This document shows positions 8,395 through 37,887 of a DNA stretch of 58,470 bases, piece after piece. A program made the position numbers and the translations under genes. The notes under the pieces were generated by a model. It ran no database searches. It had not been told where the DNA came from and saw nothing but the letters and a program-made list of their open reading frames with translations. The stretch is from an uncultured Candidatus Saccharibacteria bacterium (GTDB lineage Bacteria; Patescibacteriota; Dojkabacteria; JAOAGR01). How positions within the stretch are numbered: position 1 is the first letter of the stretch; every line of letters starts with the position of its first letter. Location: NCBI GenBank assembly GCA_964503755.1, contig CAZDBO010000002.1:194261-252730 (forward strand), read 5' to 3'.

Positions 8395-8402
8395 AATCTA
8401 TG

Positions 8403-8411
8403 TGTTATAAT
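8403..8411 (+). promoter_or_regulatory. Extended -10 promoter element (TGnTATAAT), 9 nt before ATG at 8421
   Basis: TGTTATAAT seen directly in the 26-bp divergent gap. Confidence 0.6.
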
Positions 8412-8420
8412 ATTTGTATT

Positions 8421-9029
8421 ATGAAATTTTTTATCGCTATTATTTTAACTATTTTAGCATTTTATTTATCAATCGGCATACAAATTTTATTAGTTCCATT
8501 ACCAGAACCAAAAATATCTATAGACTTTATAAATGGTAACCTAGAATATCCTGACCAATTTTCCCCTATACTTTTTGAAAAAATAATAAAACAAACATCA
8601 ATTGTAAATAACAAAGAAATTTATGTATACCCAGAGACAAATATACAAAATTCGATGCTTATATACACTATAGTGCTATTTGTGACCGTGTATTTATCAA
8701 TAATCTTATTTGGAAGACATCCTATTATATACCTACCATCTATCATGGGCAGTTTACTGGCAACATCGGTGATGTTTTATCTTATCCTAAATATCCAAAA
8801 TATCGACCCATCAACAATATTTTTAATCAATAACATAAAAAATGAACAAAATTTTATAATCGCGTATATAGTGATAGTAATATCATATACAACATTCGCA
8901 ATATTTCAAAGTATAACAACGAATCAAAAGAATAAAATAATAAATTCTCAACAAAGAATTTATCATCAAAATCAAAATTTTAATTTGCCAAATACAAATC
9001 AACAAAAAGTAAATAGCCATCGAAGATAA
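8421..9029 (+). CDS. Hypothetical multi-pass membrane protein
   Basis: About 4 hydrophobic segments and a Q/N-rich tail; start moved from 8400 to ATG 8421 because of the adjacent -10 box. Confidence 0.7.
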   Translation: MKFFIAIILTILAFYLSIGIQILLVPLPEPKISIDFINGNLEYPDQFSPILFEKIIKQTSIVNNKEIYVYPETNIQNSMLIYTIVLFVTVYLSIILFGRHPIIYLPSIMGSLLATSVMFYLILNIQNIDPSTIFLINNIKNEQNFIIAYIVIVISYTTFAIFQSITTNQKNKIINSQQRIYHQNQNFNLPNTNQQKVNSHRR

Positions 9030-9039
9030 AACAAAATCT

Positions 9040-12000
9040 CTATTTCTTTTTAGCGAAGTAAGCTTTGAAACTAACAATATTTGCTTTTTCATCAAAGTCT
9101 ATACGTATAATCAGATAATATTTGGTTGAAGGATTCTTAATAAGCAAATCATTAGTAGGACTTAAAAATGATACAAACTTTGTTCGTGGAAATTCAGTAT
9201 CTGTGGTATTATCAGCCATTGGCTGCGATCCATGTTTTAACACAAGAGAATTATATTTCTGTACCATACCTAGATTATATGAATGAGTGATAAAATTGAC
9301 ACTACCAACAAATCCACTCCTATTATTAATTCTACCTGAACTTGGTTTCATTTGAATATTACTCTCATCTGAAGGTGTACCAACTTTTGAAACTGTGTAC
9401 GCTAAAGCTGTAGCTATTTCACACATTCCTCCGCCGGGGTTACTCCCATCGGCTGGTTTACTAGGATCGGGAAAAACTCTTCCTTTATCCCAAGGAACTT
9501 CTACACCAGTAATAATTATCCCTTGATCAGAACCTGGTCTATAAAGGTGTGAAAGGTGAGTAGCATTAAAATATCCCATTCGTCTGAGAACTGAGAAATC
9601 GCCACCAGGTGATATAACATGCGTGCCCACCAATGGTCCTGCATCTTTTCTACCCGTTGCTTTATCCCACTGATTCACTAACATCAAATACTGAGCAGCA
9701 GATGCTGTACCTGTATTATACAATGACATTTTGTACTCAAACATTGTACCTTCTACTGCCTGATAATCATTTTCAATCTGATTAATATTTTGCGACGAAT
9801 TAGAATAGCTAGGATTTCGAGCAAAACAATTTTTGGTCAGTTGTAACCTTGGATCATTAATTTCTTTAAGCATAGATTCTATATTAGGCCATGCAGCCAT
9901 TAACTTAGAATTAGACCAATCGGGTTTCTCTCCATTTCTAAAATAACCAGGATTGTACTTAGAGTTAACTTTATCCCCAACACAAAATAGCTCAGTTCTT
10001 GGATCAAATATTCTAGGATTCGGATCGAAAAGCTTTACATCTGCAAAAGTGATTGGATATCTGGTCATATTACTATAATAATCACTATCACTTAACGAAT
10101 TGGGTACTCTTCTGACTAAACCACGATTACAATCATTACGTGGATCACCTTTTCGCTTTGAATCTATGGGGGTATATCTTTCCATCGTATAGACAAATGC
10201 ATTAGAAACTTTACAGGTACCACCATCTTGTCCTTTGAAAGGAATATCAAACTCCTTTCTTCCACCTTCAGAATACTGTTGATACTCATTAAAACGATTT
10301 CTTACTGATACAACCGCACAATTAATTTGCTCTTGCCACGAATCTGCTCCATCTAAAAAACAACCAAAAATACCACTTTCAGAGAGACTAAAAGTGCTCT
10401 CCTGAAACCATATAGCAGCAATAAAAGCACAAGATACATTATACTCTGCGGCTTTTTGACACATATATCTAACTCTACTGCGAATCAAATTTATATTATC
10501 TTCCCCTTTTCTTCTTAATACAGCTGCAACAATTCTTTCTTCTATTTCCTGGTTTACATCGGTATTATTTACAGTAGCTATTCGGCTATTATTTCCGAAT
10601 TTTTCATCAACAAAAGGTGTATCATTACTAATACACCATGTAGTTTCACAGTAAGATCCGTCATTTTCTGAAGAATATTCATCTCCTGTAGTGCTAACAT
10701 CTACAGTCATATCTTCTAAATTAAATGGAAGCAGATTGATTTCCACTTCTTTTCCAAAAAGTCTCATCAAGGGATCTTCGCCTGTAATGATTTTATTTAA
10801 TTTCACCATACAGTTCCATTTTGCTGGGTAGTACATAGGATTATCATATACGACAAATCCAAAACGTTTGAAAAGTGGACTTGATGAGTCATTAGGAATG
10901 TATTCTTTTGATGAAGAGGGAATGTTTTTTGATTTCACAGGATTGACTATTGGATCTGTTCCATTAAGTCCAGATATAGCAAATAGATTTGAATATATCT
11001 CTGTACTGCCTTTATTTTCGATTTTCATATAAAGCGGTGTCATCCCGTATAAAATGTCGGGAGAATAAAATGTCATACCATGAATATCATACTTATGTAT
11101 GTATGAACCAACAATCCTACCTCCATCATAAGTAAAATCAAATATAGTTGGTGTATTTATTGGGTCCATTGGAGGAAAGCCACAATTATTAAATTCATAA
11201 AGACCCAAATAATTAGTACAATCTGTTGTATAAGCTGCATAACGCCAGTGATAGATCAGGGCAGGATACGAATTGGCTGTAATACTTCCTTCGATAGGTA
11301 TTTGAGATAGTATTACTCTAACAAGTGAACCTGATGGTTCTAAAAAAATATCTAGTGTTCTAACTCCAAACCAAGTTATGTTGCTTATGTTGATCTTACT
11401 AATTCTTCCATTAAATCCATTTACTTGTGGTATTGGAAAGATTGTAACTCTTATATCACCGTAATTATTTGATTCGAATACAAAATAGGGGACTTCAATT
11501 AAATAGCCTTCATTAAAAGAGTTTGCGTCTTCTTTTTCTCCAGAATAAGTCAATATTACATAAAAAGTAGTAGGAGTTGGTACTATTTTTAAAAATACAT
11601 ATTGTGATCCACACACACTGACCCCAAAACAATTATTTGATGATATTTCATTTACATTTAATCTTAAATTATTGGGACTGCCGTCATAGATATTTGAGAT
11701 TCTATAAATCTCAATCACATTGGATGTGCTACGAGAAACACCATAAACAACATCATCATTCTGAACAAAATCCCATGCCTGAGTCGCTGGAGAATTTAAA
11801 ATATCTGTATATGTTACATCTGATTTTGATACCACAGGGAAATTAAGCCCCAGATCGCTCATAACTGGAATTACAACCTGAAAAACACGAACATTATCTC
11901 CAGTAGAAATGATATTTACGACATCTAGATTCTCCATTTTATTATCACCATTAATATCGACAATATGTCTTCGATATGACGCAAATTGTACTAACGAAAA

Positions 12001-14406
12001 TTTCTCGCTATTTTCAAATAAAACTTTACACAACACATCAGATGAACTAAATCTTTGTATCAAATAAGTCATTAGGGCTAGTTGTTCTTGTGAGGGTATA
12101 TAACAAATGAACGGTTTAACCTCCCCTGTTGTACCATCAGAGCCAGGTCTGTTTAAATTTCCAACAATATATCTTGGCTTGCCCAAACTATCCAGAACTA
12201 AAACCATATCTTGTCCGGCATATTCATAAACATTATAGTCAGGATATCGCAATCCTAACTCTCCATAATCCTTTGAAAAAATGGCTGTCAAATCCCAATA
12301 ATTATTATCATACTGTATACCTAGAGCATGACCACGAGATTTTGCTCTATCTAAGTCACCAATAAGAGTATATGGAATAGCATCTTTTGTCGGTACATTA
12401 GTCTTTATAGGTTTTCCATGAATAGCAACTTCTTTTTTATCACACGTAAGCCCTGCCCTTGGAACATTCCATTTGCCTGTCAATTCAGAATCGGTTGAAT
12501 AGTTGGCATAGTTTAAAGCTTGACTGACCACATAATTTTGTAATCCTCCAGCAATAACACAATGTGTCAACATAAAATCAACTGCAAGTACATTTCCTCG
12601 TGTACCTTTTACATTACGTGTACCTTGATTTGTAGTTGAAGTATCATTGTCTTCATTCAATAGTTCTTGTATATTTTGAGCATCAGCATACAGCTTTTTT
12701 CTTTCAGTATCCAGCAATTCCACTCTATAAACCCCAGAAGCTGAGTCACCCGTTGCTTTAATCCTTCCAAACTCTGTATATTCAGAACACCAAGAGGGGG
12801 AAAGATAATTTATCCACGGATCATTAAAAGATTTATTATTCCATAAGTCTCTAAGATTTTGTTGTGAAGCAAGAGTTGATCCAACTGGTATACTCTTATT
12901 CTGATAACCAATAACGTTATTACCTTCTTCTACAGAAAGCAAATCACACCCCTGCCGATTAATATAAGATTGTATACAAATCTTTAATTGTTCTTCTGAT
13001 ACAAACTCTTTTATTATCGCAAAAGTTTGTTTAGTTGAATTTGGTAGCCTATCATATCCAAAGTAATATTTGTTATTATTTTGTTCACATCGTGCAATAT
13101 CATTTTCTATACTTCGGCATACATCACTTAACTGATTTGTTCCAAGATTACAACCATTATTTTCTAATTCTTGTAAGTATTGATTACGACAAGAATCATC
13201 AGGTGGTGGAAAAGGATTTGGTAATGGTGAAGGTGCAGGATTTGCAAATCTAACAATCTTGTCGAGACTATACGCATAATTTATCTCTTTTGCGTTTGTA
13301 ATGCTTCTAATAGGATTAGGAATACCAAACCTTGAATAATTTGTGGGAAGCAGTTGATTAGTTTGGACTATATTAGCGAATAAATTATACACAAAATTAA
13401 CTACCTTGGCTGTCGCACCTTGTTCAACTTGCTGATTTGGATCCACAATCGTGGTGAAAGGATCATAAATAGCAAACGTAGACAAAGTTTTTCCTTTTAC
13501 ATCTGTATTTCCTCGACCAATACCCATGTTTGGCAATCTAAATATCTTTGTACTTTCGAGAGTCAAATTTCCAAAACTATTTACAAAAGCATTTTCATTT
13601 GATTGTCCACCGTACCCTTGTACTTCTATTGTCACCGGAAGCACGGCTCGCTTTCCTCCTGACTTTCCCTCAACAGGAACAAACTGTTGTATATCATCAT
13701 GCCCCCATAGAAAATTTGAACCTACTGTAGAAATGTCTTTTACTACCTGACCCACATTAGTAACTGTACGAACTCCAAATATATCGATATTAGAATTATT
13801 CGTAAAAGTTTCTGCCAAATTGACTATTGGCGCTAAAACCGTATCAAGGAAAGAAATCAATGGATTTGTATTCACGGCATTGTCATTTGTTGAAGAATTA
13901 GTATTAGATTGTACGTTAGTATTTTCAAATGTTAAATCATTTGCAACAACATTTTGTAAAGAAAGAATACTTACATTACGCAAACACTCACTATTTGCCT
14001 CTGCTTCTTTTATATAGCATCCCAAAATACGTTCACTAGTTCTAGGCACATCAAGATTAAGAGTCGTAATCATAGGGGAGGGGGGAGTTCTCAAGGTAGC
14101 TTTAACTATAGAAGTTTCTATATTTATTGGAAGAGTATATTTTATGTTTTCCTTATCGGGTGCAGGTCCACTAAATCCATCACTTAAAAAATATGCCGTA
14201 TATGTAGAGTGATCCAGATTAACATTATATTCGTTGTATATAATCTCTGTATTTTGAAATCTTGCATTTAAAAACTCTTGAATATCAATTTCATTCGAGT
14301 ATACTGTCCAATCTACTCTTCCCTGATCAATGCTGTAGTAGTAATAAAATATTCCAATTAATATAACAAGTAAGAAAGAATTTATTTTTCTTAAAAATAG
14401 AAACAT
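9040..14406 (-). CDS. Giant (1788 aa) membrane-anchored extracellular protein with a lysozyme-like domain and a C-terminal VanW-like domain
   Basis: N-terminal TM; AAEYNVSCAFIAAIWFQES..IFG..SWQEQI..ERYTP (about 10170-10480) resembles lysozyme-superfamily glycosidases; GGGMCEIATAL..HSY..DLLIKN..YLIIR (about 9043-9700) resembles VanW. Confidence 0.7.
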   Translation of the reverse strand: MFLFLRKINSFLLVILIGIFYYYYSIDQGRVDWTVYSNEIDIQEFLNARFQNTEIIYNEYNVNLDHSTYTAYFLSDGFSGPAPDKENIKYTLPINIETSIVKATLRTPPSPMITTLNLDVPRTSERILGCYIKEAEANSECLRNVSILSLQNVVANDLTFENTNVQSNTNSSTNDNAVNTNPLISFLDTVLAPIVNLAETFTNNSNIDIFGVRTVTNVGQVVKDISTVGSNFLWGHDDIQQFVPVEGKSGGKRAVLPVTIEVQGYGGQSNENAFVNSFGNLTLESTKIFRLPNMGIGRGNTDVKGKTLSTFAIYDPFTTIVDPNQQVEQGATAKVVNFVYNLFANIVQTNQLLPTNYSRFGIPNPIRSITNAKEINYAYSLDKIVRFANPAPSPLPNPFPPPDDSCRNQYLQELENNGCNLGTNQLSDVCRSIENDIARCEQNNNKYYFGYDRLPNSTKQTFAIIKEFVSEEQLKICIQSYINRQGCDLLSVEEGNNVIGYQNKSIPVGSTLASQQNLRDLWNNKSFNDPWINYLSPSWCSEYTEFGRIKATGDSASGVYRVELLDTERKKLYADAQNIQELLNEDNDTSTTNQGTRNVKGTRGNVLAVDFMLTHCVIAGGLQNYVVSQALNYANYSTDSELTGKWNVPRAGLTCDKKEVAIHGKPIKTNVPTKDAIPYTLIGDLDRAKSRGHALGIQYDNNYWDLTAIFSKDYGELGLRYPDYNVYEYAGQDMVLVLDSLGKPRYIVGNLNRPGSDGTTGEVKPFICYIPSQEQLALMTYLIQRFSSSDVLCKVLFENSEKFSLVQFASYRRHIVDINGDNKMENLDVVNIISTGDNVRVFQVVIPVMSDLGLNFPVVSKSDVTYTDILNSPATQAWDFVQNDDVVYGVSRSTSNVIEIYRISNIYDGSPNNLRLNVNEISSNNCFGVSVCGSQYVFLKIVPTPTTFYVILTYSGEKEDANSFNEGYLIEVPYFVFESNNYGDIRVTIFPIPQVNGFNGRISKINISNITWFGVRTLDIFLEPSGSLVRVILSQIPIEGSITANSYPALIYHWRYAAYTTDCTNYLGLYEFNNCGFPPMDPINTPTIFDFTYDGGRIVGSYIHKYDIHGMTFYSPDILYGMTPLYMKIENKGSTEIYSNLFAISGLNGTDPIVNPVKSKNIPSSSKEYIPNDSSSPLFKRFGFVVYDNPMYYPAKWNCMVKLNKIITGEDPLMRLFGKEVEINLLPFNLEDMTVDVSTTGDEYSSENDGSYCETTWCISNDTPFVDEKFGNNSRIATVNNTDVNQEIEERIVAAVLRRKGEDNINLIRSRVRYMCQKAAEYNVSCAFIAAIWFQESTFSLSESGIFGCFLDGADSWQEQINCAVVSVRNRFNEYQQYSEGGRKEFDIPFKGQDGGTCKVSNAFVYTMERYTPIDSKRKGDPRNDCNRGLVRRVPNSLSDSDYYSNMTRYPITFADVKLFDPNPRIFDPRTELFCVGDKVNSKYNPGYFRNGEKPDWSNSKLMAAWPNIESMLKEINDPRLQLTKNCFARNPSYSNSSQNINQIENDYQAVEGTMFEYKMSLYNTGTASAAQYLMLVNQWDKATGRKDAGPLVGTHVISPGGDFSVLRRMGYFNATHLSHLYRPGSDQGIIITGVEVPWDKGRVFPDPSKPADGSNPGGGMCEIATALAYTVSKVGTPSDESNIQMKPSSGRINNRSGFVGSVNFITHSYNLGMVQKYNSLVLKHGSQPMADNTTDTEFPRTKFVSFLSPTNDLLIKNPSTKYYLIIRIDFDEKANIVSFKAYFAKKK

Positions 14407-14445: not shown

Positions 14446-16371
<1,926 letters not shown>

Positions 16372-19343: not shown

Positions 19344-22300
19344 CTACAATCCAACAACTGAACGATTGTATCTAGAAGGGCCAGAACCAATATATTCTCC
19401 AGCCCTCAAAGCCAGTATTGGATCATACATGATATGTATATAAGGATAGCGAGGATCATCGTCATAATTTTCACTTGGTTCACCTGATTGTCTAAAAATA
19501 AGGTTCGGATTCTGATATATAAAACAATAAGTTACTTGTGAAGGATGATTACATTCTGAAGTTCGTTCTCTTAATACAATACGATTAGTATAAACACTAC
19601 CATAAACAATATTTGTCGTTGTACTGTAATCAGTGGTCAATGACTCTCTTGCTATAAACATACCTTTATATAAATTGAAAGACGATTGATTATTAAAATT
19701 AACCACATTATTACTTAAATTATATGAACCAGTACCCACAAACTCTATCCTGTTTGCAAAAAATATATACTTAGTTTCAGATAAACTATCAGAATACGTC
19801 AAAAGCATGGAATTATTAGATGGACCATAGCTAGCAATTTGACTTCTAGGATTAATCTTCAAGGTACAATTTGGACAAAAAACAATGACAATACCACCTT
19901 CATTTTCTGTAGTCGGATAAGTAAAATTGATTGTATACTCTGTATTTGTATCCGCAGTTTCAGGTTCATACATTACTATCGTACCTGATGGAGTAGGAGT
20001 AATTGAAGAATCTCTATCTCGTACTGGTATCTTTTCTACTATATTTCCCAAATTATTTTGCAAATTTGATAACTTTGCCTGAATATTGTTTATATATGTA
20101 TTATTATCTCGACTAATACGATAATCCACACCTAAGACCATGAATACTGCGTCTATAGAACTATTGCTTACTATGTAATCAAAAATTTTATGATCACCAT
20201 TTGGATTACCTACCTGTGTATTTTTTAACCCAACATCTCCTCTTTGAGTACTGTAAAATAGGTTCATGCAAGGACGACTTCTGTCAAATCTATTAGAAAA
20301 ATCACTTATACTTTGTCCTCCCAAAGTAGTAGTACCATTCTGTGAGAAAACCACATTCCGTCTTCCTAAGTTGTCACGGACAATGACATAAAGAGTTAAA
20401 CTAGTATCTGTCAATCTTGTCGCATCTATTTGGATATCATTACGTCCGCCTTGCAATACCCTTATACGAACAAGCGGATTTACCTGTGATGATGTTAAAG
20501 GATTTAATAATTCTGTTATCTGTTGATCAGTCATTTCATTAGTGATACCAGTCAAAGGTGCACTATTATTAAACCTATAATAAATTCTTTCTATTGTTCC
20601 TCTCAGCGGTATTATGGTTATATTCCATCTATATGGAGTAATACAACTAGAAGAAATTTGGAAACTTGATAGGCTATCAAATGTTCCTGTTGCAGGTGGA
20701 TTACCTGTTGGTGGGTTACCTGGGGGACCACCTGGTGGATTATTTTGCCCATTAATATTACAATCAAATGTCAACTGGTTATTTGTAGTGACTCGTAAAA
20801 GTATAGGTATATTTCGAGATCCAGCTAAATTATTAAACTCGGTTCTTGCGAAAATTGAACGCGGTATATTTATATTATAATTCAGGTTAACACCATCATT
20901 ATTTGAATTAATTGTATATTGATTATTTGTAACATTTGCTGTGGAATTTGATCTAATAATACTTAAAGTACCTGTGTCGTTAAGGTTATCATCTTGTATA
21001 GAGATATTACTTAAATCAATAGAATATCTACTAATAGAACTGATATTTGAAAATACTGCATCATTAATACGGAAAGATAAAGATAAACCTGAATTTAATA
21101 AATCAACATTACCGCTTGGTGAATTTATAACGCATCTAACACTAGAATTATATCGAGTTTGGATCACACAATAATTACTACAGTTTTGAGCTGGACTTGC
21201 AGGTCTTGAACTACTACCCGATACTTCATATACCATACCCCCCGATGGAGATGGTCCTGCATTCCTACACCATCTATTACCATTTACCCAATCTACATAA
21301 TTTACTCCAAAAACTATACCTTGTGAAAAGTCCAAGACTCTACCAGAACAATTAGAGCCTGGTGCATTTGGCATGTTTGTAGTTATTCCGTTATATATAT
21401 TATCTGGCACACGAAAAGTCGCGATAGTTAGGTTTCCCTGGATATTTATACTACTATTATTACTATTGATCAAATAATAATTACACCGATCATCCAATTG
21501 TGTACCCATTAGGTTTGCTGGTCTCATCCAAAATGTACTAAAGTTTGGTGCATTTGAATGTCGCACGGAAGAAATTGTGACTACAGAACCCGGTCTAGGT
21601 AAACCTATAATAGTGTTATCTGAAAATATACTATTAACACTCCTAGAAACCTCTTGACTACTATTTATTGGGGTATATCTTATTTCCATGGATTGACATG
21701 AATCAGGTATAGAAGGTATAGACCTGTATACATAATGCCATACCATATTTTGGTTTGTTACCATGCCCTCTCCATTGTGTGGAGCTATATATCCTTGATC
21801 TTTGGCAAACATGCGAAAATTATTTCCTACAAAATAATAATAGTTACCATTCATCACTACCTGAAATACACCACCATAAGGTATTTGTTGATTACTACAA
21901 TTTATAGTATATGAGGTTATTGAGCCAGAATTAATTCTATACCATCTATAACCACTACACCGATCAGGCCTTCCATCTTGATCATCATAATAATAAGAAA
22001 AATACAAATTATTTCCAATAACAGAAAAATCGCCAATTGAAACATCATAGTTTGAAACATTAAAGCTATTGATAAAATTATTTGTAGTACAATTATTTGA
22101 ACTTATTGAACATGTTGCTATGTTAATCGAATCATAATCTATGTTATTTGATCGAATACGCTGTGAATATAATACGTAAAATGTATTATTAGCATAATAC
22201 AACGATGATCCAGTTACATTATTTCCTTGTGGAATTTGATATAATTGAGTGATTGAAAAACGATTTAAAGATGTATCTAACACAATTCTTCCAATTCTGA

Positions 22301-23255
22301 CGGGCTCATAAGTAACATCTAATCCCCCTGAAGAATTCCTTAGGACATTGACTCTATTGTATACAACATAATTGTTTTCTTGTCCAAGGCTAAAAACATC
22401 AAGTAAACGAAAATATAATCTATCTACAGGAGTAAAATTACGATATGTAGCCAATGTAGGATTTGGCTCATTAATACCAGGATAATACGCACATAATGCT
22501 GTATTATTATTTTTATACGAGCAATGATTTATTCTAATAGAACTCGTATTAATCTGGCCATTTAAAATTATATTTTTAATATCAAACCAAACTTGATTAT
22601 TTTGTCCTGCATTTTTATCATCACTAAAGACACCCACAAAATACGCTATGTTATTTTGAAAGTGTTTAAAAGTCATCCACCAATCTTCTGATCCTACTCT
22701 GCCAGTACCAATGTTAAGAAATCTATGTATATTATATTCCGTCCGTCTGAGTGAACCTGAATCAAAATAATATATAAGTAAAAAGAAATCACTATTTAAG
22801 GATCTTTTCGCAACCGTAATAAAACCTCCACCCAAACTGTTATTGCTAGTATTATCAAAATCATTTACCATCACTAAACTATAAAATCCGAAATCGCTAC
22901 CATATCGTAAATCTAAATTAGAGTTACTTGAAGGATTATCCCACGAACCAACTCCATTATTCCCTGATCCATTAAATATACGAATTCTTACGAACGTTGT
23001 TATGCTACCATTTGAAAAAATTTTTTCACCGAATACTCCCAATATAGCTTCAGGGTTAGAATTGCTACCAGTCCTGACTTTATCAATTCCTAGAATATTA
23101 TTATTTGGAGATGTTAAAGTTAAACCACTCGATAAGTTATTGGAAGCAGGAGGAACATCTAATACCTGAGCACGAGCAAAAAAACCTATTCCCAGAAGAA
23201 TATAAGAAGTAAAAAAAACAAATAGAAAAATTATAATTTTAATATTTTTTGTCAT
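19344..23255 (-). CDS. Giant (1303 aa) secreted protein, putative pilus-associated adhesin in the PilY1 position
   Basis: Signal peptide, N/S-rich beta domains, Cys pairs, PPGGPPGNPP linker, beta-helix-like C-terminal region; lies directly downstream of the minor pilin run. Confidence 0.55.
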   Translation of the reverse strand: MTKNIKIIIFLFVFFTSYILLGIGFFARAQVLDVPPASNNLSSGLTLTSPNNNILGIDKVRTGSNSNPEAILGVFGEKIFSNGSITTFVRIRIFNGSGNNGVGSWDNPSSNSNLDLRYGSDFGFYSLVMVNDFDNTSNNSLGGGFITVAKRSLNSDFFLLIYYFDSGSLRRTEYNIHRFLNIGTGRVGSEDWWMTFKHFQNNIAYFVGVFSDDKNAGQNNQVWFDIKNIILNGQINTSSIRINHCSYKNNNTALCAYYPGINEPNPTLATYRNFTPVDRLYFRLLDVFSLGQENNYVVYNRVNVLRNSSGGLDVTYEPVRIGRIVLDTSLNRFSITQLYQIPQGNNVTGSSLYYANNTFYVLYSQRIRSNNIDYDSINIATCSISSNNCTTNNFINSFNVSNYDVSIGDFSVIGNNLYFSYYYDDQDGRPDRCSGYRWYRINSGSITSYTINCSNQQIPYGGVFQVVMNGNYYYFVGNNFRMFAKDQGYIAPHNGEGMVTNQNMVWHYVYRSIPSIPDSCQSMEIRYTPINSSQEVSRSVNSIFSDNTIIGLPRPGSVVTISSVRHSNAPNFSTFWMRPANLMGTQLDDRCNYYLINSNNSSINIQGNLTIATFRVPDNIYNGITTNMPNAPGSNCSGRVLDFSQGIVFGVNYVDWVNGNRWCRNAGPSPSGGMVYEVSGSSSRPASPAQNCSNYCVIQTRYNSSVRCVINSPSGNVDLLNSGLSLSFRINDAVFSNISSISRYSIDLSNISIQDDNLNDTGTLSIIRSNSTANVTNNQYTINSNNDGVNLNYNINIPRSIFARTEFNNLAGSRNIPILLRVTTNNQLTFDCNINGQNNPPGGPPGNPPTGNPPATGTFDSLSSFQISSSCITPYRWNITIIPLRGTIERIYYRFNNSAPLTGITNEMTDQQITELLNPLTSSQVNPLVRIRVLQGGRNDIQIDATRLTDTSLTLYVIVRDNLGRRNVVFSQNGTTTLGGQSISDFSNRFDRSRPCMNLFYSTQRGDVGLKNTQVGNPNGDHKIFDYIVSNSSIDAVFMVLGVDYRISRDNNTYINNIQAKLSNLQNNLGNIVEKIPVRDRDSSITPTPSGTIVMYEPETADTNTEYTINFTYPTTENEGGIVIVFCPNCTLKINPRSQIASYGPSNNSMLLTYSDSLSETKYIFFANRIEFVGTGSYNLSNNVVNFNNQSSFNLYKGMFIARESLTTDYSTTTNIVYGSVYTNRIVLRERTSECNHPSQVTYCFIYQNPNLIFRQSGEPSENYDDDPRYPYIHIMYDPILALRAGEYIGSGPSRYNRSVVGL

Positions 23256-26600: not shown

Positions 26601-27035
26601 TTACTCAGATTGAATATAAGTAACCTTGTTTATTTTTACATTTTTTTTGGAGGATTCAATTATGGCATCAGCATCTGTTTTTGCTCTATCTGGATTTTCT
26701 GTATCGAATATATAAACAACAATATGATCGCTTACATAAGGTGTAAAAAATTCAATTGAGAATCTTTCATCGGGATCATAATAAGGAATACTATTTTTTG
26801 CATATAATTCAGCTTGATAAAAAATATCATCTTCAATTCTCCTCTCAGCACTTTGAAAAGGTTGATCTATGACTTCATTCGAAGTATTAAAAACACCAAG
26901 CATAGATAAAATCGCGTATGTAAAGATACCACAAGTCAAAAGGGAAAAAACGGACGCAAGATAAAAATTAATTTTCTTTTGCTTTTCTACAAATTCTTCT
27001 TTTTTCTTAAATTTATAAATATTTGAACTTTTCAT
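26601..27035 (-). CDS. Hypothetical single-TM protein
   Basis: One TM (FYLASVFSLLTCGIFTYAILSMLGVF); start moved to ATG 27035 because the longer ORF overlaps tRNA-Pro. Confidence 0.65.
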   Translation of the reverse strand: MKSSNIYKFKKKEEFVEKQKKINFYLASVFSLLTCGIFTYAILSMLGVFNTSNEVIDQPFQSAERRIEDDIFYQAELYAKNSIPYYDPDERFSIEFFTPYVSDHIVVYIFDTENPDRAKTDADAIIESSKKNVKINKVTYIQSE

Positions 27036-27053
27036 CCAAAAAATACTAAATAT

Positions 27054-27130
27054 TGGTCGGGGTAAGCAGACTCGAACTGCTGATCTCAAGACCCCCAGCC
27101 TTGTGCTTTAGCCAACTAAGCTATACCCCG
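27054..27130 (-). tRNA. tRNA-Pro, anticodon GGG
   Basis: Cloverleaf: acceptor CGGGGTA/TACCCCG, anticodon arm CAAGG-CTGGGGG-TCTTG, T-loop TTCGAGT, encoded CCA. Confidence 0.97.
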
Positions 27131-27152: not shown

Positions 27153-27932
27153 CTATGGCTCGATATAAATCTTTGATTTGTCATATTCAGAACACAGATA
27201 TAAAAGTCCATCTGAATCAAAAATATATTGTACATAGGTTTTATCCAAATACTCATCACAACTTTGAACTCTAGAAAACTGATATTCAGTAGAGGATATA
27301 TCCACAACCAAAGCATCAGAAGTATTAATTTGTTTCGTATATAAATATAATTTATTTGATGGTGTTCCAATATTTGTGGCAGATGAGTTATTGATATAGA
27401 TTTCGGGAATATGATTATAAAAATATCGATAGCTCTGAATTTGTTTTAGTAAAACCAAAATAATTTTTTTCCTATCCTCATCACGAGCTCTCTTTGCTTC
27501 AGTATTGTCTATATAATCTTGAGATTCACCTATAGCTGGAGTAGGAGATAAAGTAACAGTCGGAGTTAAGTTTACTTTATTTGTTGTTTTATTAGTTGTC
27601 TTATTTGAACTAGTCTTATTTTGTGATGATTTATTATTTGTTGACGAAATTGATTGTTTTGGTGTTTGATAATTGTTCTCAATTTTTGTATTCGTATCAT
27701 TATCTTGTTTTTTCTCTAAACTTTGATCATACTGTACCTTTAAATCTAAATCTAATCCCGCAATATAATCATTTTGATCAACATAATTTACTGGTTTAAC
27801 CTTAATCTGATTCTCAAAATATTTTAATTTATCAGAGGCAAAAATATTATTACTAAATAAAAAATATAAAATACATAAAAGAACAAAAACATTTATATTC
27901 AAAACTAAAATTTTAGATAAAATACCTTTCAT
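27153..27932 (-). CDS. Membrane-anchored protein with an S/T/N/K-rich linker and a C-terminal pilin-like head
   Basis: N-terminal TM; low-complexity linker; AKRARDEDRKK..LKQIQSYRYFYNHIP resembles the post-helix segment of GspG-type pilins. Confidence 0.5.
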   Translation of the reverse strand: MKGILSKILVLNINVFVLLCILYFLFSNNIFASDKLKYFENQIKVKPVNYVDQNDYIAGLDLDLKVQYDQSLEKKQDNDTNTKIENNYQTPKQSISSTNNKSSQNKTSSNKTTNKTTNKVNLTPTVTLSPTPAIGESQDYIDNTEAKRARDEDRKKIILVLLKQIQSYRYFYNHIPEIYINNSSATNIGTPSNKLYLYTKQINTSDALVVDISSTEYQFSRVQSCDEYLDKTYVQYIFDSDGLLYLCSEYDKSKIYIEP

Positions 27933-30520
27933 ATCACTGCAATAGATGCAACACGATCATCTTCATCTAATTTAAACAAAATCACACCACTAGTAACGCG
28001 CCCACTTTCTTGTATATCTTTTACATTTATTCTAATTGATTTACCTTGTACTGATAATATTAAAAGATCTCTATCTGGGTGATCGATGATGCGTGCTGAT
28101 TTAATAAAACGAGTCTTGGATGTAATTTTATGAGCTAGCATACCTTTTGTGGCTCTTCCTTTGGTAGGATACTCGGATAATAAAGTCATTTTTCCATATC
28201 CTTTTTCTGTAACAGTCAATATCCGATCTTCATCGATTCTTACGACATCCATCATAATCACAATATCATCACTGGACAGGCGAATACCTGTAATCCCTCT
28301 CGCACTACGTCCCATTACGCGCACAGACTTGCTATTAAATCTCACAGCTCTTGCTTTTTTAGTTATGATAATAACATCAGATTTTACATCAATATTACGC
28401 ACAAAGGCAAGTTCATCTCCGCTGTCCAAATTTATTACAGTTATACCATTTCTACGTATTTCTGATATTTCGGTTTTGTCTATTTTTTTGATAATTCCTC
28501 GCTTAGTACACATGAAAATATACTTAGTTTTATCAAATTTCTCCCCTTCTTGAGATTGATCTTGATCAATAATCTCTTTATTCAACTGTCTTACCAATAC
28601 CGCAGTTATAGTTTCATTAGTATCTATGGATACAAAATTGATTACAGGTGTTCCTTTTGATTTTTTCTGTTGTTCAGGTATATCAGCTACTTTTAGAGTA
28701 TACGCTTTACCTTTATTTGAAAACAAAATAAGCTCGCTATGGGTATCACAATAAATGATATGTTCTACATAATCATCCTTTTTGGTCACAGCCCCAACAC
28801 TTCCTTTTCCTCCACGTGATTGAGATTTAAATTCTTTTATATCAACACGTCTTATATAACCAGCCTTTGATATAGTAACAATAACATCTTTTTTTTCAAC
28901 TAGGTTTAAACCAAATTCATCTGATTGTCCATTTTGATATTGTTTCACGACTCGTGTTTTTCTCTCATCACCAAACTGTTTTTTTATACTTTCAAGATTC
29001 GACTTAATATGACTTAATATCAAACTTGGGGAATCTAAAAATATTCGTGCTTGTTCTAGAGAATTTTTTACTTCATTTAATTCCTCTTGAATCTTAGCTC
29101 TCTCAAGAGCAGCTAATTTTCTAAGTTGCATGTCCAAAATAGCCTGTGCTTGCACATCAGTAAAACCAAATCGATCCATCAAATTTGTTTTAGCAGAATC
29201 TGCACTTGGTGAATTACGAATAATACTAATAATTTCATCAATAAAATCTAATGCCTTTTTCAACCCCTCGAAGATATGTTCTTTTTGAACATTTTGATTC
29301 GCTTCGAAAATTTTTGCTCTTATCTCTACCTCGATTCTATGTTTTAAGAATAATTCAAGAATTTTCTTCAAACTTAAAGTATGTGGCTCTCCATCTACTA
29401 TAGCAACCATATTTATATTGAACGCAAGTTGCATCTCTGAATTGCGATACAGTTTGTTCAAAAGCACATGAGAATTTACCCCCTTTTTTAGCTCTAAGAC
29501 CAATCTTATTCCCTCTTTACTGTTACTCTCATCACGAATATCACTAATACCTTCTATTTTCTCTTCTTTCAAAAGATCATGAATTCGCTCAGCTAATTTT
29601 GCCTTGTTTACCTGATATGGTAACTCTGTTACAACTATTTGAACACGTCCTTTTGTTGTCTCTTCAAGTTTGGTAATTGCTCGCATGATTACTCGTCCAC
29701 GTCCCGTTTCATAAGCTTGAATGAGTCCGCCATCATCTATAAATTCTGCACCTGTAGAAAAATCCGGACCTTTTACATACTTTATAAGTTCAGTAGTGGT
29801 AACATCAACCATAAAATTAGGGTAGGGAATAGGCATATCCGATAGCTGTGCATCCCTCGCAGTATAATAATCTTTAGCTATATATTGCGAAAAAGAATAA
29901 GTTATATCGGCGGTTTTAAGATAAATGTCAATCAAATAAATAAGCGCATCAATAATTTCAGTAAGATTGTGAGGGGGTATTTTTGTTGCCATACCAACTG
30001 CAATACCATCTGCGCCATTGATAAGTAAATTGGGTATCTGTGTTGGTAATACTGACGGTTCTAGTTCGTCGCCAGTATAGTTGGGAACAAAATTAACAGT
30101 TTGATTTTCTATACCTTCAAGAAACTTAGTAGTAATTTTGGCAAGTCTAACCTCGGTATACCTCGCAGCAGCTGGCGAGTCACCGTCAATAGATCCAAAA
30201 TTTCCCTGTCCATCAACCAGAGGATATCGCATCACCCAATCCTGAGCTAATCTTGCCAACGCATCATAAACGGAGGCATCACCATGCGGATGGTATTTTT
30301 TCAATACCTCACCTATAACTCCCATTGACTTTTTATATGAACCATCCGGTAAAATCCGATCTTTATACATTGCATAGAGTATCCTTCTTACAACAGGTTT
30401 TAACCCGTCACGCACATCAGGAAGTGCTCGCGCAACAATAACACTCATCGCATAATCTATGTATGACTTTTTTAATTCTTCTTCTACTGATACTATTTTT
30501 ATATTTTGAGCTTGTGACAT
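27929..30520 (-). CDS. gyrA: DNA gyrase subunit A
   Basis: [25 protein letters not shown] (catalytic Tyr), GyrA-box QSRGGKG, C-terminal beta-pinwheel repeats. Confidence 0.97.
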
Positions 30521-31742: not shown

Positions 31743-33542
31743 GTGATGCCGGCTGGTGTAATAACAAGTATTTTAGATGTACTCTTAAACGAAAATATAA
31801 TCTCGGCTGATCAATACAAACAAATTAAAAATGAATCATTAATTAAAAAAATCCCACCAGAAAAACTACTATTAGAATGCAAATTAGTAAACGAAGAACA
31901 AATAACGCATGCAAAATCTATTCTTTACGGCTTGCCAATCATTGATATTAAATCGATTAAAATCGATAAACAAATATTATCTTTATTACCAATAGATGAA
32001 TGTAAAAAAAACAAAATCATAATCTTTGAAAAAAAGACTGACAATACATATAAGGCTGCTATTGCAAATCCACTTAATCTACAATATTTAAGACTTATTG
32101 AACAAAAGATAAATGGAAGACTAGAGCTATTTGTAGCAAACGAAAGTGATATAAAATCTGTATTAAGCCAATTCACAGATACTAAGATAAGTTCTGAATT
32201 TTCAAATGTCATAGAAAAAGCAAAATCTGACGAGGATATAATCGATATATCGAAAATCGAAGACACAAAACTTAACGATGTTGATCTAAAAAACACCCCG
32301 ATTGCGAAACTAGTTACTCTTATCATCCAAACCGCAATAATAGAAAAATCTTCAGATATTCATATTGAACCACAAGAAAACATAATAAGAGTAAGATACA
32401 GGATAAACGGAATTTTGATAGAAAAGATTACGATTCCACCTGCACTTGGTCCTGCATTAGTTTCAAGAATAAAAATACTTGGGAAAATGCCAATTGATGA
32501 AAAAAGAAAACCACTCGATGGTCGCTCACAAATAAAATATGAAGGTAATGAAATAGATCTGCGTATATCATCCTTACCAACAGTATGGGGAGAAAAAATT
32601 GTAATACGTTTACTTAGGAAAGATCTTGGTATCTTAAACCTTGAAGATACAGGTATGAGAGGAAATGCCCTAAAAGTATTTAAAGAAGGATTAAAAGCAA
32701 CTACTGGTATTATACTAGTCACAGGCCCTACAGGTTCGGGAAAAACCGTGACAGTTGCTACTAGCATGTCTATATTAAACAAACCAGAAGTAAATATAGT
32801 TTCTATTGAAGATCCGGTTGAAATCCGTATTCCAGGAATCAATCAAGTGCAGGTAAATGAGGAAGCTGGTCTTACATTTGCATCAGCTCTAAGAGCATTT
32901 TTAAGACAAGATCCTGATATCATATCTGTAGGAGAGATACGTGACCAAGAAACCGCACAACTAGCAGCACAGGCTTCGTTGACGGGTCATCTCGTAATCT
33001 CAACATTACATACAAATAGTGCTGCAGGAACATTACCACGACTTTTGGATATGGGAATAGAACCATATATTGTGGCATCAACCGTGACTATATGTTGTGC
33101 ACAGAGACTCTGTCGGAGAATTTGTAAACATTGCAAATATGCTTATCATGCCAAAGAAGAAGAAATATTAGAATTACGAAGAGTTTTAGGTCATACTTCT
33201 TATTTCGATGAAAACAAATATTTACAATTCCAATCTAAACTCATAGAGACACAAAAAATACCCATTGAAAATACGAATTTAGAATCAAATAACATATTTC
33301 TATTTAAAGGAAGAGGATGTGAAAAATGCAATTTTACTGGATATACTGGTCGAATTGGTATATTTGAAGTATTTAAAGTTTCAGAAAAAATCGGAGCACT
33401 TGTAATGAAACATGCAAGTACGAGTGAAATCGAAAATCAAGCAATTAGCGAAGGGATGATAAGAATGGTAGAAGATGGATATTTTAAAGCATTAGAAGGA
33501 ATTACTGCCATCGAAGAAGTTCAAAGAGTAATACATTCATAA
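31743..33542 (+). CDS. pilB: Type IV pilus assembly ATPase PilB/GspE
   Basis: N-terminal MshEN-like region, GPTGSGKT, EDPVE, LRQDPDII.VGEIRD, STLHTN, CxxC..GCEKC zinc site; ATG alternative at 31746. Confidence 0.95.
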   Translation: MMPAGVITSILDVLLNENIISADQYKQIKNESLIKKIPPEKLLLECKLVNEEQITHAKSILYGLPIIDIKSIKIDKQILSLLPIDECKKNKIIIFEKKTDNTYKAAIANPLNLQYLRLIEQKINGRLELFVANESDIKSVLSQFTDTKISSEFSNVIEKAKSDEDIIDISKIEDTKLNDVDLKNTPIAKLVTLIIQTAIIEKSSDIHIEPQENIIRVRYRINGILIEKITIPPALGPALVSRIKILGKMPIDEKRKPLDGRSQIKYEGNEIDLRISSLPTVWGEKIVIRLLRKDLGILNLEDTGMRGNALKVFKEGLKATTGIILVTGPTGSGKTVTVATSMSILNKPEVNIVSIEDPVEIRIPGINQVQVNEEAGLTFASALRAFLRQDPDIISVGEIRDQETAQLAAQASLTGHLVISTLHTNSAAGTLPRLLDMGIEPYIVASTVTICCAQRLCRRICKHCKYAYHAKEEEILELRRVLGHTSYFDENKYLQFQSKLIETQKIPIENTNLESNNIFLFKGRGCEKCNFTGYTGRIGIFEVFKVSEKIGALVMKHASTSEIENQAISEGMIRMVEDGYFKALEGITAIEEVQRVIHS

Positions 33543-33572
33543 TAGACAAAAAATTTTAAATATTTTAATCTG

Positions 33573-33586
33573 ATATATATATATAT
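33573..33586. repeat. (AT)7 dinucleotide run ending in the pilT start codon
   Basis: atatatatatatat(g) seen directly. Confidence 0.8.
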
Positions 33587-35558
33587 GAACGACAATAATA
33601 TAGCAAGCCCTTTTCTAGAACAACAAGTGAATAACTTTTCTACATCATCGGGGCAACAACAAAATACACAACCTATCCTGACTCAAACTCAGCAACAAAT
33701 CCAAGCATTTCAACAAGTCCAACAAAATCAACAAAATTTTTCAACACAGCAAATAGATACAAATTTTGATGGTCAAAATATACCAAATAATAAAATCTTC
33801 AGTAACTCAAATGTAAATACACCTGAAGTATTTCAATATCCATCCCAACCCACAGCAAATAATTTATTGAATCAACCCGAACAAATTTTTAATGGCCAAA
33901 ACTCTTTTGATCAACAACAGTATTTAGGGGGAAATGATTATAACAATAATACAAATGTCTATTCGAACAATTCAGAAAATGACATGAGTTTTAACACACA
34001 AGATATAACATCTAATTTACAATCCAATCCAAGCCAAGACAATTTAAATCAATCTCAAATTATTAATAACGAATCGTTTAATAATTTTCAACAGATCTCA
34101 AATAATCAAGGTAATCAAACGGATTTTACAACATCAATAGGGGGTTATGTTTCACCATACGCCCAACAATTATCCAGCCAACAAATTACAAATACCGATG
34201 TATTACAACCTGAAAGTAACCCAAACTATAATGCCAGTGGAGTAGAACAGAACTCAATGGATATAAATTCAGATAACATAGCAACAGCACCAAACACCAA
34301 TCAAACGCAGGATAATAATCCTAATGTATCTCCAAATCAATCTTCTAACATATTTAATCAATCAGAATCATTTGACAACTCAACAAACATTTATACAACA
34401 AATAATTCTTCATCCGATCAAAATATAAATACTACTGAAGAATTAAATCCACAGAACATTTACGACGTTAAAACAAATACTACCATCAAAAAAGAAAGAT
34501 TTAAAAGTATTTCTGAGTTGTTAGATAAAGTTTTAGAATTAAAAGGATCAGATCTCCATATTGCAGCAGGCTATCCTCCCACTATACGTATCGATGATAT
34601 TTTAAGACCGGTTGGGGATACTCTTACAAAAGAAGAAGTTAAAAATTTCGTTTTCCAATCACTATCTCAAGGTCATAAAGAATTGTTAGAAATCAACAAA
34701 GAAGTTGATCTTTCTTATCAACATGAAGATAAAGCAAGATTTAGAATAAATGCTTACTTCGCAAGAAACTCGTATGCTGCTGCTTATCGCCTGATTCCTC
34801 AACGGATCAGATCATTAACCGAACTTGGTTTACCAAATATATTGTTAGAATTAACAAAATACTCTCAAGGATTATTTCTGGTAACAGGCCCTACTGGTTC
34901 TGGTAAATCAACCACCCTTGCGGCAATGATACAACATATTAATGAAACAGAAGCAAAACACATCTTAACAATTGAAGATCCAATCGAATATGTATATCCA
35001 AAGGCAAAAGCATTTGTCAGTCAAAGAGAAATAGGAACTGACACGCATGATTGGAATATAGCTCTTCGCAGTGCATTAAGAGAAGATCCTGATGTCATAT
35101 TGGTTGGTGAATTGAGAGATTTAGAAACTATCCAATCAGCACTTACTTTATCAGAAACAGGACATTTAGTTTTTGCAACATTACACACTAATAGTGCGGC
35201 TCAATCAATAGATCGTATAATTGACGTATTTCCGCCACACCAACAAGAACAAATTAAAAATCAATTAGCCGGAGTCTTAAAGGGTATACTTAGTCAAAGA
35301 CTAGTTCCACTTATTGGCGGAGGTAGAAAAGCTGTAATAGAGCTAATGATAGTAACACCAGCCATACAAAATCTTATAAGAGAAGGAAAAGTATTTCAAA
35401 TTGACAATGTCATAGCAACAAGTGCTGATCTAGGTATGATTCAACTAGAAAAATCCCTCGTTCAGTTGATTAGGGCTGGTGCAATAACAGTGGATACGGC
35501 ATTTGAATATGCAATACGCCCAAATGAACTACAAAAAATGCTAAAAATTAATATGTAA
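33585..35558 (+). CDS. pilT: Type IV pilus retraction ATPase PilT with a ~295-aa Q/N-rich N-terminal extension
   Basis: SDLHI, GPTGSGKSTT, EDPIEY, LREDPDVI.VGELRD, AIQNLIRE (AIRNLIRE variant) from about 34490 onward. Confidence 0.93.
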   Translation: MNDNNIASPFLEQQVNNFSTSSGQQQNTQPILTQTQQQIQAFQQVQQNQQNFSTQQIDTNFDGQNIPNNKIFSNSNVNTPEVFQYPSQPTANNLLNQPEQIFNGQNSFDQQQYLGGNDYNNNTNVYSNNSENDMSFNTQDITSNLQSNPSQDNLNQSQIINNESFNNFQQISNNQGNQTDFTTSIGGYVSPYAQQLSSQQITNTDVLQPESNPNYNASGVEQNSMDINSDNIATAPNTNQTQDNNPNVSPNQSSNIFNQSESFDNSTNIYTTNNSSSDQNINTTEELNPQNIYDVKTNTTIKKERFKSISELLDKVLELKGSDLHIAAGYPPTIRIDDILRPVGDTLTKEEVKNFVFQSLSQGHKELLEINKEVDLSYQHEDKARFRINAYFARNSYAAAYRLIPQRIRSLTELGLPNILLELTKYSQGLFLVTGPTGSGKSTTLAAMIQHINETEAKHILTIEDPIEYVYPKAKAFVSQREIGTDTHDWNIALRSALREDPDVILVGELRDLETIQSALTLSETGHLVFATLHTNSAAQSIDRIIDVFPPHQQEQIKNQLAGVLKGILSQRLVPLIGGGRKAVIELMIVTPAIQNLIREGKVFQIDNVIATSADLGMIQLEKSLVQLIRAGAITVDTAFEYAIRPNELQKMLKINM

Positions 35559-35569
35559 ATAATATAAAT

Positions 35570-36790: not shown

Positions 36791-36792
36791 AT

Positions 36793-37869: not shown

Positions 37870-37887
37870 AGATAGAATTTTATATTT

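Follow-up and report, generated by a model that had tools for sequence, protein, structure and literature searches.

A giant gene beside gyrB in Dojkabacteria encodes a candidate peptidoglycan-remodelling enzyme with lysozyme-like and VanW-like modules

What could a bacterium with a streamlined genome use a protein of 1788 amino acids for? The question is raised by a giant gene in an uncultured bacterium that is labelled Candidatus Saccharibacteria in GenBank and placed in the Dojkabacteria (Patescibacteriota, JAOAGR01) by GTDB. We analyzed positions 194,261 to 252,730 of contig CAZDBO010000002.1 (assembly GCA_964503755.1), a stretch of 58,470 nucleotides that is called the window here and to which all coordinates refer. 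An earlier inspection of the letters alone, termed the sequence-only reading below, had taken the product for a membrane-tethered fusion of a lysozyme-like and a VanW-like domain that are held out on a long stalk. With regard to mechanism and ALTERNATIVES, the best-supported reading is now that of a large exported peptidoglycan-remodelling enzyme of Dojkabacteria and neighboring lineages of the candidate phyla radiation (CPR), to which we assign a probability of roughly 55%. The enzymatic identity is much better supported than the choice of the target wall: we regard the former as quite probable, and for the latter the balance is even.

The gene is a single uninterrupted open reading frame (ORF) for 1788 residues and a stop codon, and the opposite strand of the same interval is devoid of any ORF of at least 80 amino acids in the list of window ORFs. 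The extent of the ORF and the motifs quoted from it were correctly given before: PAPSPLPNPFPPP occupies aa 390-402, AAEYNVSCAFIAAIWFQES aa 1319-1337, ERYTP aa 1409-1413, GGGMCEIATALAY aa 1658-1670, HSY aa 1708-1710 and DLLIKN aa 1753-1758.

9040..14406, minus strand: whole gene, 1788 aa plus stop, resting on the ORF list, on a ratio of nonsynonymous to synonymous substitution rates (dN/dS) of 0.10 versus the L001 orthologue and on about 25 full-length clusters of 1660-2000 aa

The orthologue at locus L001 is 78% identical and resides in an identical gene order. With a dN/dS between the two of 0.10 overall and of less than 0.2 for each segment, the gene can be taken as real and under purifying selection along its whole length. 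The target protein itself gave no direct match to a known family, and both domain names were therefore tested through its relatives. Plasmid_RAQPRD (E 0.19), the sole listing from direct searches of the target, was dismissed as a sub-threshold chance match.

Relatives were collected by searching 1.84 billion representative proteins exhaustively with HMMER, using aa 1200-1788 as the query. This yielded 31 proteins, about 25 of which are full-length (1660-2000 aa) and match at the same C-terminal position, and a few short proteins (240-730 aa) match the 'QES' region only. A word-indexed homologue search, run with the single protein and with an alignment of 22 sequences, returned only the target and one orthologue and did not recover the distant members. 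Three alignments were used, comprising 22 full-length sequences (A1), 28 sequences of the lysozyme-like domain, here called domain X (A2), and 21 of the VanW-like domain, here called domain Y (A3). Invariant in A1 (n = 22) are C1253, W1257, C1258, C1316, C1326, W1333 and E1336; S1337, Y1411-T1412-P1413, G1658, G1660, C1662, H1708, D1753 and N1758 are nearly so. The two motifs singled out by the sequence-only reading are the best-conserved features of the C-terminal third in this alignment. In a collection of species genomes, the family is located in metagenome-assembled genomes (MAGs) of Candidatus Dojkabacteria (WS6), including one complete genome of 738 kb. Two more MAGs with family members are labelled Saccharibacteria, and their GyrB proteins are 72-74% identical to that of the window; one variant relative stems from candidate division CPR3. 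All full-length members are publicly named 'hypothetical protein', and only the CPR3 variant carries another name, given for its VanY domain.

The lysozyme-like part of the protein is made up of the following elements, the domain being assigned to the GH23 (glycoside hydrolase family 23) or SLT (soluble lytic transglycosylase) type with the aid of an AlphaFold2 (AF2) model:

10117..10572, minus strand: domain X, predicted divergent lysozyme-superfamily (GH23/SLT-like) domain, aa ~1279-1430, based on AF2, Foldseek, weak SLT_2 matches, hhalign and dN/dS
10396..10401, minus strand: Glu1336-Ser1337, putative catalytic acid at the C-terminal end of a helix, based on conservation in A1 and A2 and on AF2
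10633..10653, minus strand: YCETTWC, aa 1252-1258, invariant C-x3-W-C motif before domain X (C1253, W1257 and C1258 invariant, n = 22; family consensus YCEETWC)

E1336 is invariant in both A1 (n = 22) and A2 (n = 28) and S1337 is conserved to at least 90% in A1. The AF2 model of domain X, built from the 28-sequence alignment, reaches a predicted TM-score (pTM) of 0.75 with a predicted local distance difference test (pLDDT) above 90 in its core, and a helix at model residues 87-98 (pLDDT ~91) ends exactly at E97-S98, which are aa 1336-1337 of the protein. With a dN/dS of 0.05, the domain is the most strongly constrained part of the gene. Foldseek found g-type lysozymes, MltF, SltB3, a phage lysin or SagB in ten of the top 20 matches from the PDB. 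Twelve of the top 25 from BFVD are annotated as transglycosylases or lysins, headed by a phage SLT transglycosylase (E 0.011, probability 1.00). At the level of sequence profiles, SLT_2 from Pfam matched three of the 28 sequences, all of them short relatives (E 0.007-0.1), and a PDB profile search with the domain X family weakly indicated 'lytic transglycosylase c' (E 1.5). Searches of PDB sequences with the family profiles A1, A2 and A3 gave nothing significant, and nothing recurrent emerged from a PHROGs search with domain X. We conclude that domain X probably adopts a lysozyme-superfamily fold with a GH23-like active-site layout and represents a new family rather than a member of PF01464. 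The kind of domain and the helix ending in Glu-Ser had thus been recognized, albeit at the level of the family only, since the target has no direct match; the closest structural neighbors are SLT proteins and g-type lysozymes, although at a best E of 0.011 and TM-scores of 0.3-0.4.

The short proteins are homologous to domain X (hhalign probability 98.7%, E 4.4e-16; phmmer E 1.5e-8 to 1e-3 among 1.84 billion proteins). Two of them, P0032 and P0027, are encoded just downstream of a VirB4-type ATPase in two type IV secretion system (T4SS) clusters of Patescibacteria; the contigs of P0030 and P0022 are too short for gene context. Published surveys had difficulty placing VirB1 next to virB4 in Patescibacteria, and in Southlakia genes for a lysozyme and a peptidase beside virB4 were reported to be essential for epibiotic growth (PMC12102498). 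The slot is the one from which wall glycosidases of such machines are encoded. The location of the domain X relatives there fits the lysozyme and peptidase genes published for this position (PMC12102498) and lends the assignment of domain X independent support from gene context; we regard the stand-alone homologues, judged by sequence, as candidates for the 'missing VirB1' of CPR type IV secretion systems. The stand-alone homologues at L012:10001-11575 and L014:4786-6027 consist of a transmembrane (TM) segment, a DUF11-like region, a GQGRNT motif and the QES domain. They adjoin Amidase_2/Polysacc_deac_1 or Peptidase_M23 proteins, and both clusters lie next to dnaN-dnaA.

The C-terminal end of the protein comprises a connecting region and the VanW-like module:

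9628..10116, minus strand: connecting region, aa ~1431-1593, with DNQCNxGL, TRPNL and CFP (C1527); dN/dS 0.09
9043..9627, minus strand: domain Y, putative divergent VanW-type domain, aa ~1594-1788, based on Pfam VanW matches in relatives, tblastn, hhalign and motif order
9421..9423, minus strand: Cys1662 (GGGMC), putative acyl-enzyme nucleophile, conserved to at least 90% in A1 and invariant in A3, aligning to the VanW nucleophile
9283..9285, minus strand: His1708, putative triad histidine, invariant in A3 and nearly invariant in A1
9148..9150, minus strand: Asp1753 (DLLIKN), candidate triad aspartate, nearly invariant in A1 and A3 and matching the canonical DLxhxN motif

In and around the connecting region, C1426, N1427, G1429, R1433, W1497 and C1527 are near-invariant in A1. 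Pfam VanW matches 13 of the 21 Y domains of the family (best E 1.4e-7), with no other family recurring, and seven of the 22 full-length members; the matches for which scores are listed lie below the gathering score of 27 bits, e.g. at 26.1 bits. When one Y domain was compared with 7.3 Gb of plasmids by tblastn, the single match was an annotated vanW gene from a glycopeptide-resistance cluster of Nonomuraea gerenzanensis (NZ_LT559118.1, L009:588-2582). hhalign aligned the family profile with this VanW domain over 56 columns (PGxxFSFN...GGGxCExATT) at a probability of 87.1% and E 3.9e-6, and the family cysteine falls at the position of the VanW nucleophile. The order of motifs is PGQTFSLN, GGGGSQFATTMYNA, EHQP and DLDLKWRN in Nonomuraea and PGxxFSFN, GGGWCELATT, HWTHS and DGDLxIxN in the family. 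The Nonomuraea protein itself has a serine (GGGGSQF) in place of the catalytic cysteine and may, to judge from this residue, use a different nucleophile or be inactive. VanW domains are Cys-His-Asp L,D-transpeptidases that also have L,D-carboxypeptidase activity, and no PDB neighbor has been reported for their fold (PMC11348318). Domain Y is accordingly best described as a putative divergent VanW domain with L,D-transpeptidase or L,D-carboxypeptidase activity and C1662, H1708 and D1753 as the candidate triad. The VanW-like name given earlier holds for the kind of domain, as 13 of 21 relatives match VanW and hhalign reaches 87%, although the target itself lies below detection. To call VanW domains cell-wall-associated is too narrow for L,D-transpeptidases and L,D-carboxypeptidases (PMC11348318). 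Because VanW proteins have these two activities, domain Y would by analogy be a putative cross-linker or trimmer of peptide stems and not obviously a hydrolase that breaches walls.

Not all relatives carry the same module behind domain X. Four arrangements occur: a VanW-like domain in most members, a VanW-like domain plus VanY, VanY alone, and Peptidase_C39_2. In relatives P0014 and P0020, a VanY domain follows or replaces the VanW-like module; it scores E 1.6e-24 where it accompanies the VanW-like domain and E 9e-29 where it stands alone, and one source classifies the latter as an LdcB-type LD-carboxypeptidase. The papain-like Peptidase_C39_2 domain of another relative scores 32 bits, above the cut-off. 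No family member matched a CHAP or NlpC/P60 domain in Pfam. The bond that joins residue 3 to D-Ala4 in tetrapeptides is the target of VanW as well as of LdcB-type enzymes. By analogy, all of the swapped modules could act on peptide stems, and the swapping supports a peptide-stem role. Relative P0018 (1996 aa) extends about 200 aa past the VanW-like domain and contains HKTGRAVDL, reminiscent of LAS/M15 metallopeptidase motifs; the extension had no Pfam match at E<=0.1.

The remaining two thirds of the protein consist of an export signal and a large body:

14299..14406, minus strand: candidate export signal, aa 1-36, with R6 and K7 in the n-region, a hydrophobic core at aa 10-26 and V35-Y-S37 at its end; hydropathy maximum 2.07
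12037..14298, minus strand: mixed alpha/beta Cys-containing body, aa 37-790, based on identity to the orthologue, dN/dS of 0.06-0.07, invariant Cys, Trp and Asp columns and AF2
13201..13239, minus strand: Pro-rich segment PAPSPLPNPFPPP, aa 390-402, with the family motif YPNP; pLDDT 87-89 in AF2
10837..11994, minus strand: all-beta region, predicted beta-propeller, aa ~805-1190, based on AF2 strands, Foldseek and dN/dS

The N-terminus contains the only strongly hydrophobic segment of the protein. A basic n-region and a hydrophobic core of 16-17 residues are followed 5-10 residues on by an (A/V)-x-S motif that is kept at about positions 31-37 in nearly all relatives and reads VYS (35-37) in the target. 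Sequence features of this kind could belong to a Sec-type signal anchor or to a cleavable signal peptide, the motif being compatible with cleavage by signal peptidase I. A prepilin-type signal is absent from the N-terminus. Of the 'membrane-tethered' description, the single N-terminal hydrophobic segment thus stands, whereas tethering is put in doubt by the conserved (A/V)-x-S, a possible signal-peptidase site.

Within the body, aa 37-790 are without a Pfam or PDB match and bear the family motifs WGDDxxQQ, YPNP, CDEFSVEE and LTCDKKE. The most conserved parts of the protein are aa 31-400 and 501-800; against the overall value of 78%, aa 201-400 and 601-750 are 88-98% identical to the orthologue, with a dN/dS of 0.06-0.07. 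AF2 modelled aa 31-1230 at a pLDDT of 69.7 and a pTM of 0.73, with mixed alpha/beta structure up to about aa 790 and all-beta structure at about aa 805-1190 (strands at model residues 775-1158). Foldseek matches of this model in the PDB are exclusively beta-propeller proteins (best E 6e-4), among them SF3B3, DDB1, Seh1, Utp proteins and DPP8/9. In its first part, the all-beta region contains the segment that varies most within the protein, aa 801-1000 (dN/dS 0.18; identity 42-60% at aa 851-1000). The model indicates that the N-terminal ~1200 aa form a compact, packed multi-domain body that ends in a beta-propeller and is not a spacer. A stalk that presents the modules away from the cell is not supported, given a conserved and compact body (pTM 0.73) containing a propeller. 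The supposed 'Cys-paired, beta-rich spacer' does hold many conserved cysteines, 29 of them occurring in the whole protein and many being invariant or nearly invariant across the family alignments, but all-beta structure is confined to about aa 805-1190. Nor is the Pro-rich stretch confirmed as the proposed hinge: it is situated at aa 390-402 and not beside the enzymatic domains, contains the conserved YPNP and is predicted to be ordered (pLDDT 87-89).

Two segments of the body are modelled with a pLDDT of less than 50, despite an identity of 86-96% to the orthologue: aa 111-221 (nt 13744-14076) and aa 277-354 (nt 13345-13578). Two long helices are predicted within them. The segments may bind a partner or the membrane, or their poor modelling may stem from a shallow alignment. 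PilY1, a pilus tip adhesin, has a beta-propeller. A PilY1-like adhesin was considered and rejected, as the beta-propeller is the only shared feature, no Pfam family scored and the N-terminus lacks a prepilin-type signal.

In every locus recovered, including that in the complete genome, the giant gene is present in single copy and at the same place. The order PilM, PilN-like, PilO-like, gyrB, giant gene is kept even where the giant protein is only 24-29% identical (GyrB 72-74%), and in one locus the giant gene is convergent with gyrB. Genes for serine hydroxymethyltransferase (SHMT) and a DEAD helicase are kept in the same conserved block. Across these loci, identity amounts to 24-29% for the giant protein, 33% for FtsW and 26-33% for the PilN/O-like proteins. 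The synteny is ancient, yet not specific to pilus genes.

An export signal or anchor, a conserved compact body and two conserved modules with intact putative active sites come together in this protein, and we propose the following mode of action. Domain X would cleave the glycan strand between N-acetylmuramic acid and N-acetylglucosamine via Glu1336, either as a muramidase or as a lytic transglycosylase, much like its small relatives in the VirB1 slot. Domain Y would use Cys1662, His1708 and probably D1753 against the L,D bond that links residue 3 to D-Ala4 in a tetrapeptide stem, and either transfer the stem to a neighbor, creating a 3-3 cross-link, or release D-Ala and thereby trim the stem. 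Both activities would be brought into place, at the sacculus or at a partner protein, by the propeller-containing body. Taken together, the wall would be cut locally and re-stitched or trimmed, and the wall concerned is most likely that of the producer itself. Such an enzyme could plausibly serve to make and stabilize openings for structures that span the envelope, for instance the type IV pilus encoded next to it. The own wall is favored because canonical VanW enzymes (Ldt4, Ldt5, YoaR) share the export layout and act on the wall of their producer, because the gene is a fixed single-copy core gene, and because the protein has diverged to a degree that is usual for envelope proteins of the same loci and shows no special arms-race signal. 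Canonical VanW enzymes are N-terminally anchored and build or trim the producer's own wall (PMC11348318).

Several observations weigh against this proposal. Searches of Pfam, NCBIfam and PDB sequences with the whole protein and with seven segments of it found nothing meaningful even at E<=10, and this includes Pfam VanW, which did not match the target either as a whole or in segments. The hhalign match to VanW spans only the N-terminal half of domain Y, and L,D-transpeptidase activity was seen in just three of the seven VanW proteins from outside C. difficile that were assayed (PMC11348318). For domain X, Foldseek returned nothing below E 1e-3 from the PDB and BFVD, with TM-scores of 0.3-0.4, and an hhalign comparison with a bona fide SLT protein encoded nearby gave a probability of 0.5%, with the ES motifs in register. 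The linkage to pilus genes is weak functional evidence, since gyrB, SHMT and the helicase are conserved in the same block, and may simply reflect gene order in streamlined genomes. Module swapping and the possible signal-peptidase site, finally, fit a released, outward-acting enzyme equally well.

Such an outward-acting enzyme, directed at a host as in the sequence-only reading, is the alternative that deserves most attention, even though we consider it unlikely. It would be displayed or released by an epibiont and would cut, trim or cross-link the peptidoglycan of a host in order to breach the host, feed on it or fasten to it. The lineage belongs to the CPR/Patescibacteria, whose cultivated members live as episymbionts and contact their hosts by means of pili (PMC13293708). 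Homologues of domain X are encoded adjacent to virB4, where genes were reported to be essential for epibiotic growth of Southlakia (PMC12102498). The swapping of C-terminal modules (VanW, VanY, C39-like) is a typical feature of enzymes that become adapted to a variety of target walls, cleavage at the possible signal-peptidase site would release the protein, and the propeller has a variable face. Against this, known VanW enzymes work on the wall of their own producer, the N-terminal region is compact and not an extended stalk reaching out, the protein has diverged no more than other envelope proteins from the same loci, and the gene occupies one conserved position in the core genome and not a variable island. 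An even more daring idea is that of a covalent 'wall stapler': domain X would open the glycan mesh, and a VanW-type thioester intermediate would link epibiont stems, or a pilus or anchor protein, to host peptidoglycan and so join the two cells permanently. Recognition of the host surface would fall to the propeller, and the exchangeable modules would be suited to the wall chemotypes of the hosts. Of all the scenarios discussed here, the stapler is the most far-fetched.

The sight of different C-terminal modules on one scaffold, together with a small membrane protein kept directly downstream in six loci, may also evoke a polymorphic antibacterial effector, with a conserved body for delivery or binding, interchangeable wall-damaging ends and the four-TM protein as immunity protein or partner. 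This we hold to be very unlikely. The gene is single-copy in a fixed core locus without any sign of orphan toxin or immunity cassettes, and VanW chemistry is not obviously toxic; the four-TM protein is convergent and polytopic, unlike a periplasm-facing inhibitor, and is kept across members that all have the same VanW-like end, so that it shows no co-variation with the toxin module. A surface protein with a mainly structural or adhesive role, perhaps a scaffold that spans the wall or is associated with the pilus and whose modules are catalytically dead and only bind peptidoglycan, appears slightly more doubtful still. Two thirds of the protein are indeed a conserved non-enzymatic body with a beta-propeller, both C-terminal domains are too diverged for a Pfam match in the target, and the serine in Nonomuraea VanW implies that the nucleophile is replaceable. 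The putative catalytic residues, however, are the most conserved ones (E1336 invariant with n = 28, C1662 and H1708 invariant with n = 21), and domain X has the lowest dN/dS. It is the fixed locus and the invariant catalytic residues that make both the effector and the scaffold less likely.

The surroundings of the gene are as the sequence-only reading had them, past gyrB and at the end of a pilus gene run, which comprises PilM, PilN-like, PilO-like and pseudopilin genes. The gene order is gyrA, pseudopilins, response regulator, a 1303-aa protein, PilM, PilN-like, PilO-like, gyrB and the giant gene, with PilB, a second T2SSE ATPase, PilC and DprA beyond gyrA. The giant gene starts 39 nt past gyrB, and no terminator-like site is found in between; a scan for promoters and terminators gave counts no better than in shuffled sequence. 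The neighbors scanned, with gyrB and the four-TM protein as the immediate flanks, include neither VirB4 nor T4SS pilin genes. The window contains no paralogue of the giant protein, the protein itself no internal repeats, and no RNA family was found near the gene.

8400..9029, plus strand: convergent four-TM neighbor, ~172-209 aa, in the same place and orientation in the window, L003, L005, L006, L007 and L008, based on alignment and TM count

In each of the six loci that extend to this side, the four-TM protein is encoded convergently to the giant gene and directly downstream of it, its relatives being located at L003:15380-16027, L005:5615-6142, L006:4036-4554, L007:15206-15727 and L008:14659-15186, and it has no Pfam match. 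Because the relatives begin at MKFF, the true start of the ORF is probably 8421 and the mechanical start at 8400 lies 21 nt too early.

The type IV pilus genes of the window (14446-37908) are sandwiched between gyrA (27929-30520) and gyrB (14446-16362), with PilB, the second T2SSE ATPase, PilC and the DNA-uptake protein DprA at 31743-37908. Gyrase genes split by a pilus and competence block are unusual, and the arrangement is kept in distant Dojkabacteria. The 1303-aa protein between response regulator and PilM (19344-23255, minus strand) is a second giant without a Pfam match. Its slot is taken in L007 and L008 by proteins of 1250 and 1100 aa without BLAST similarity, pointing at fast sequence divergence. 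An ORF of 162 aa with a TTG start (26601-27089; region 26601-27130, minus strand) overlaps a tRNA gene at 27057-27130; should it be a gene, its translation must therefore begin further downstream.

Both enzymatic modules are of known kinds. The novelty lies in their combination in one chain, in the 1150-aa propeller body, in the presence of a VanW-type enzyme in the CPR and in a lysozyme-like family that is CPR-specific, lacks annotation and occupies the VirB1 slot as well. If our assignment is true, the giant protein would be the first candidate for a VanW-type L,D-transpeptidase to be reported from the CPR, and also the first in fusion with a glycan-cleaving domain, a fusion that would imply coupled cutting and 3-3 re-cross-linking by one polypeptide. 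The domain X family would then supply the 'missing VirB1' position of type IV secretion systems in Patescibacteria. Encoded by a genome of about 0.74 Mb, a conserved core protein with a mass of about 200 kDa would probably underpin envelope biology or host interaction in a Dojkabacteria-type lineage that has no cultured member, and E1336, C1662 and H1708 would be concrete residues for mutation.

Among known systems, the VanW enzymes (PF04294), i.e. Ldt4 and Ldt5 of C. difficile and YoaR of B. subtilis, have an N-terminal hydrophobic segment and an extracytoplasmic catalytic domain in common with the giant protein (PMC11348318). The order PGxxFSxN, GGGxC(Q/E)xATT, His, DLxhxN is shared, with Cys and His kept. 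The giant family differs in that long insertions separate the Cys helix from the His and the His from the C-terminal motif, and the giant protein has neither PG_binding_4 nor G5 domains, is about four times longer and carries its VanW-like domain behind a body of 1250 aa and a lysozyme-like domain. With GH23 enzymes (SLT PF01464, SLT_2 PF13406, goose-type lysozymes), domain X, as modelled, shares a mostly helical build with Glu-Ser at the end of a helix and a small beta-hairpin thereafter; four conserved cysteines, the FGC and YTPxD motifs and a long helix between catalytic helix and hairpin set it apart. VanY/LdcB enzymes (PF02557, LAS family) take the same C-terminal place in relatives P0014 and P0020, whereas the window protein has no VanY domain.

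A further parallel is offered by the VirB1-like SLT + CHAP hydrolases of monoderm machines, in which a glycan cutter and a Cys/His domain acting on stems are likewise united in one exported, N-terminally anchored chain. PrgK, TcpG and CwlT are further bifunctional wall hydrolases of monoderm trans-envelope machines. In the giant protein the second domain is VanW-type instead of CHAP or NlpC/P60, a propeller-containing body of 1150 aa is added, and the gene is located beside type IV pilus genes and gyrB instead of within a T4SS cluster. What both have in common is a gene beside an envelope-spanning machine, and the VirB1 slot itself is held by stand-alone relatives of domain X.

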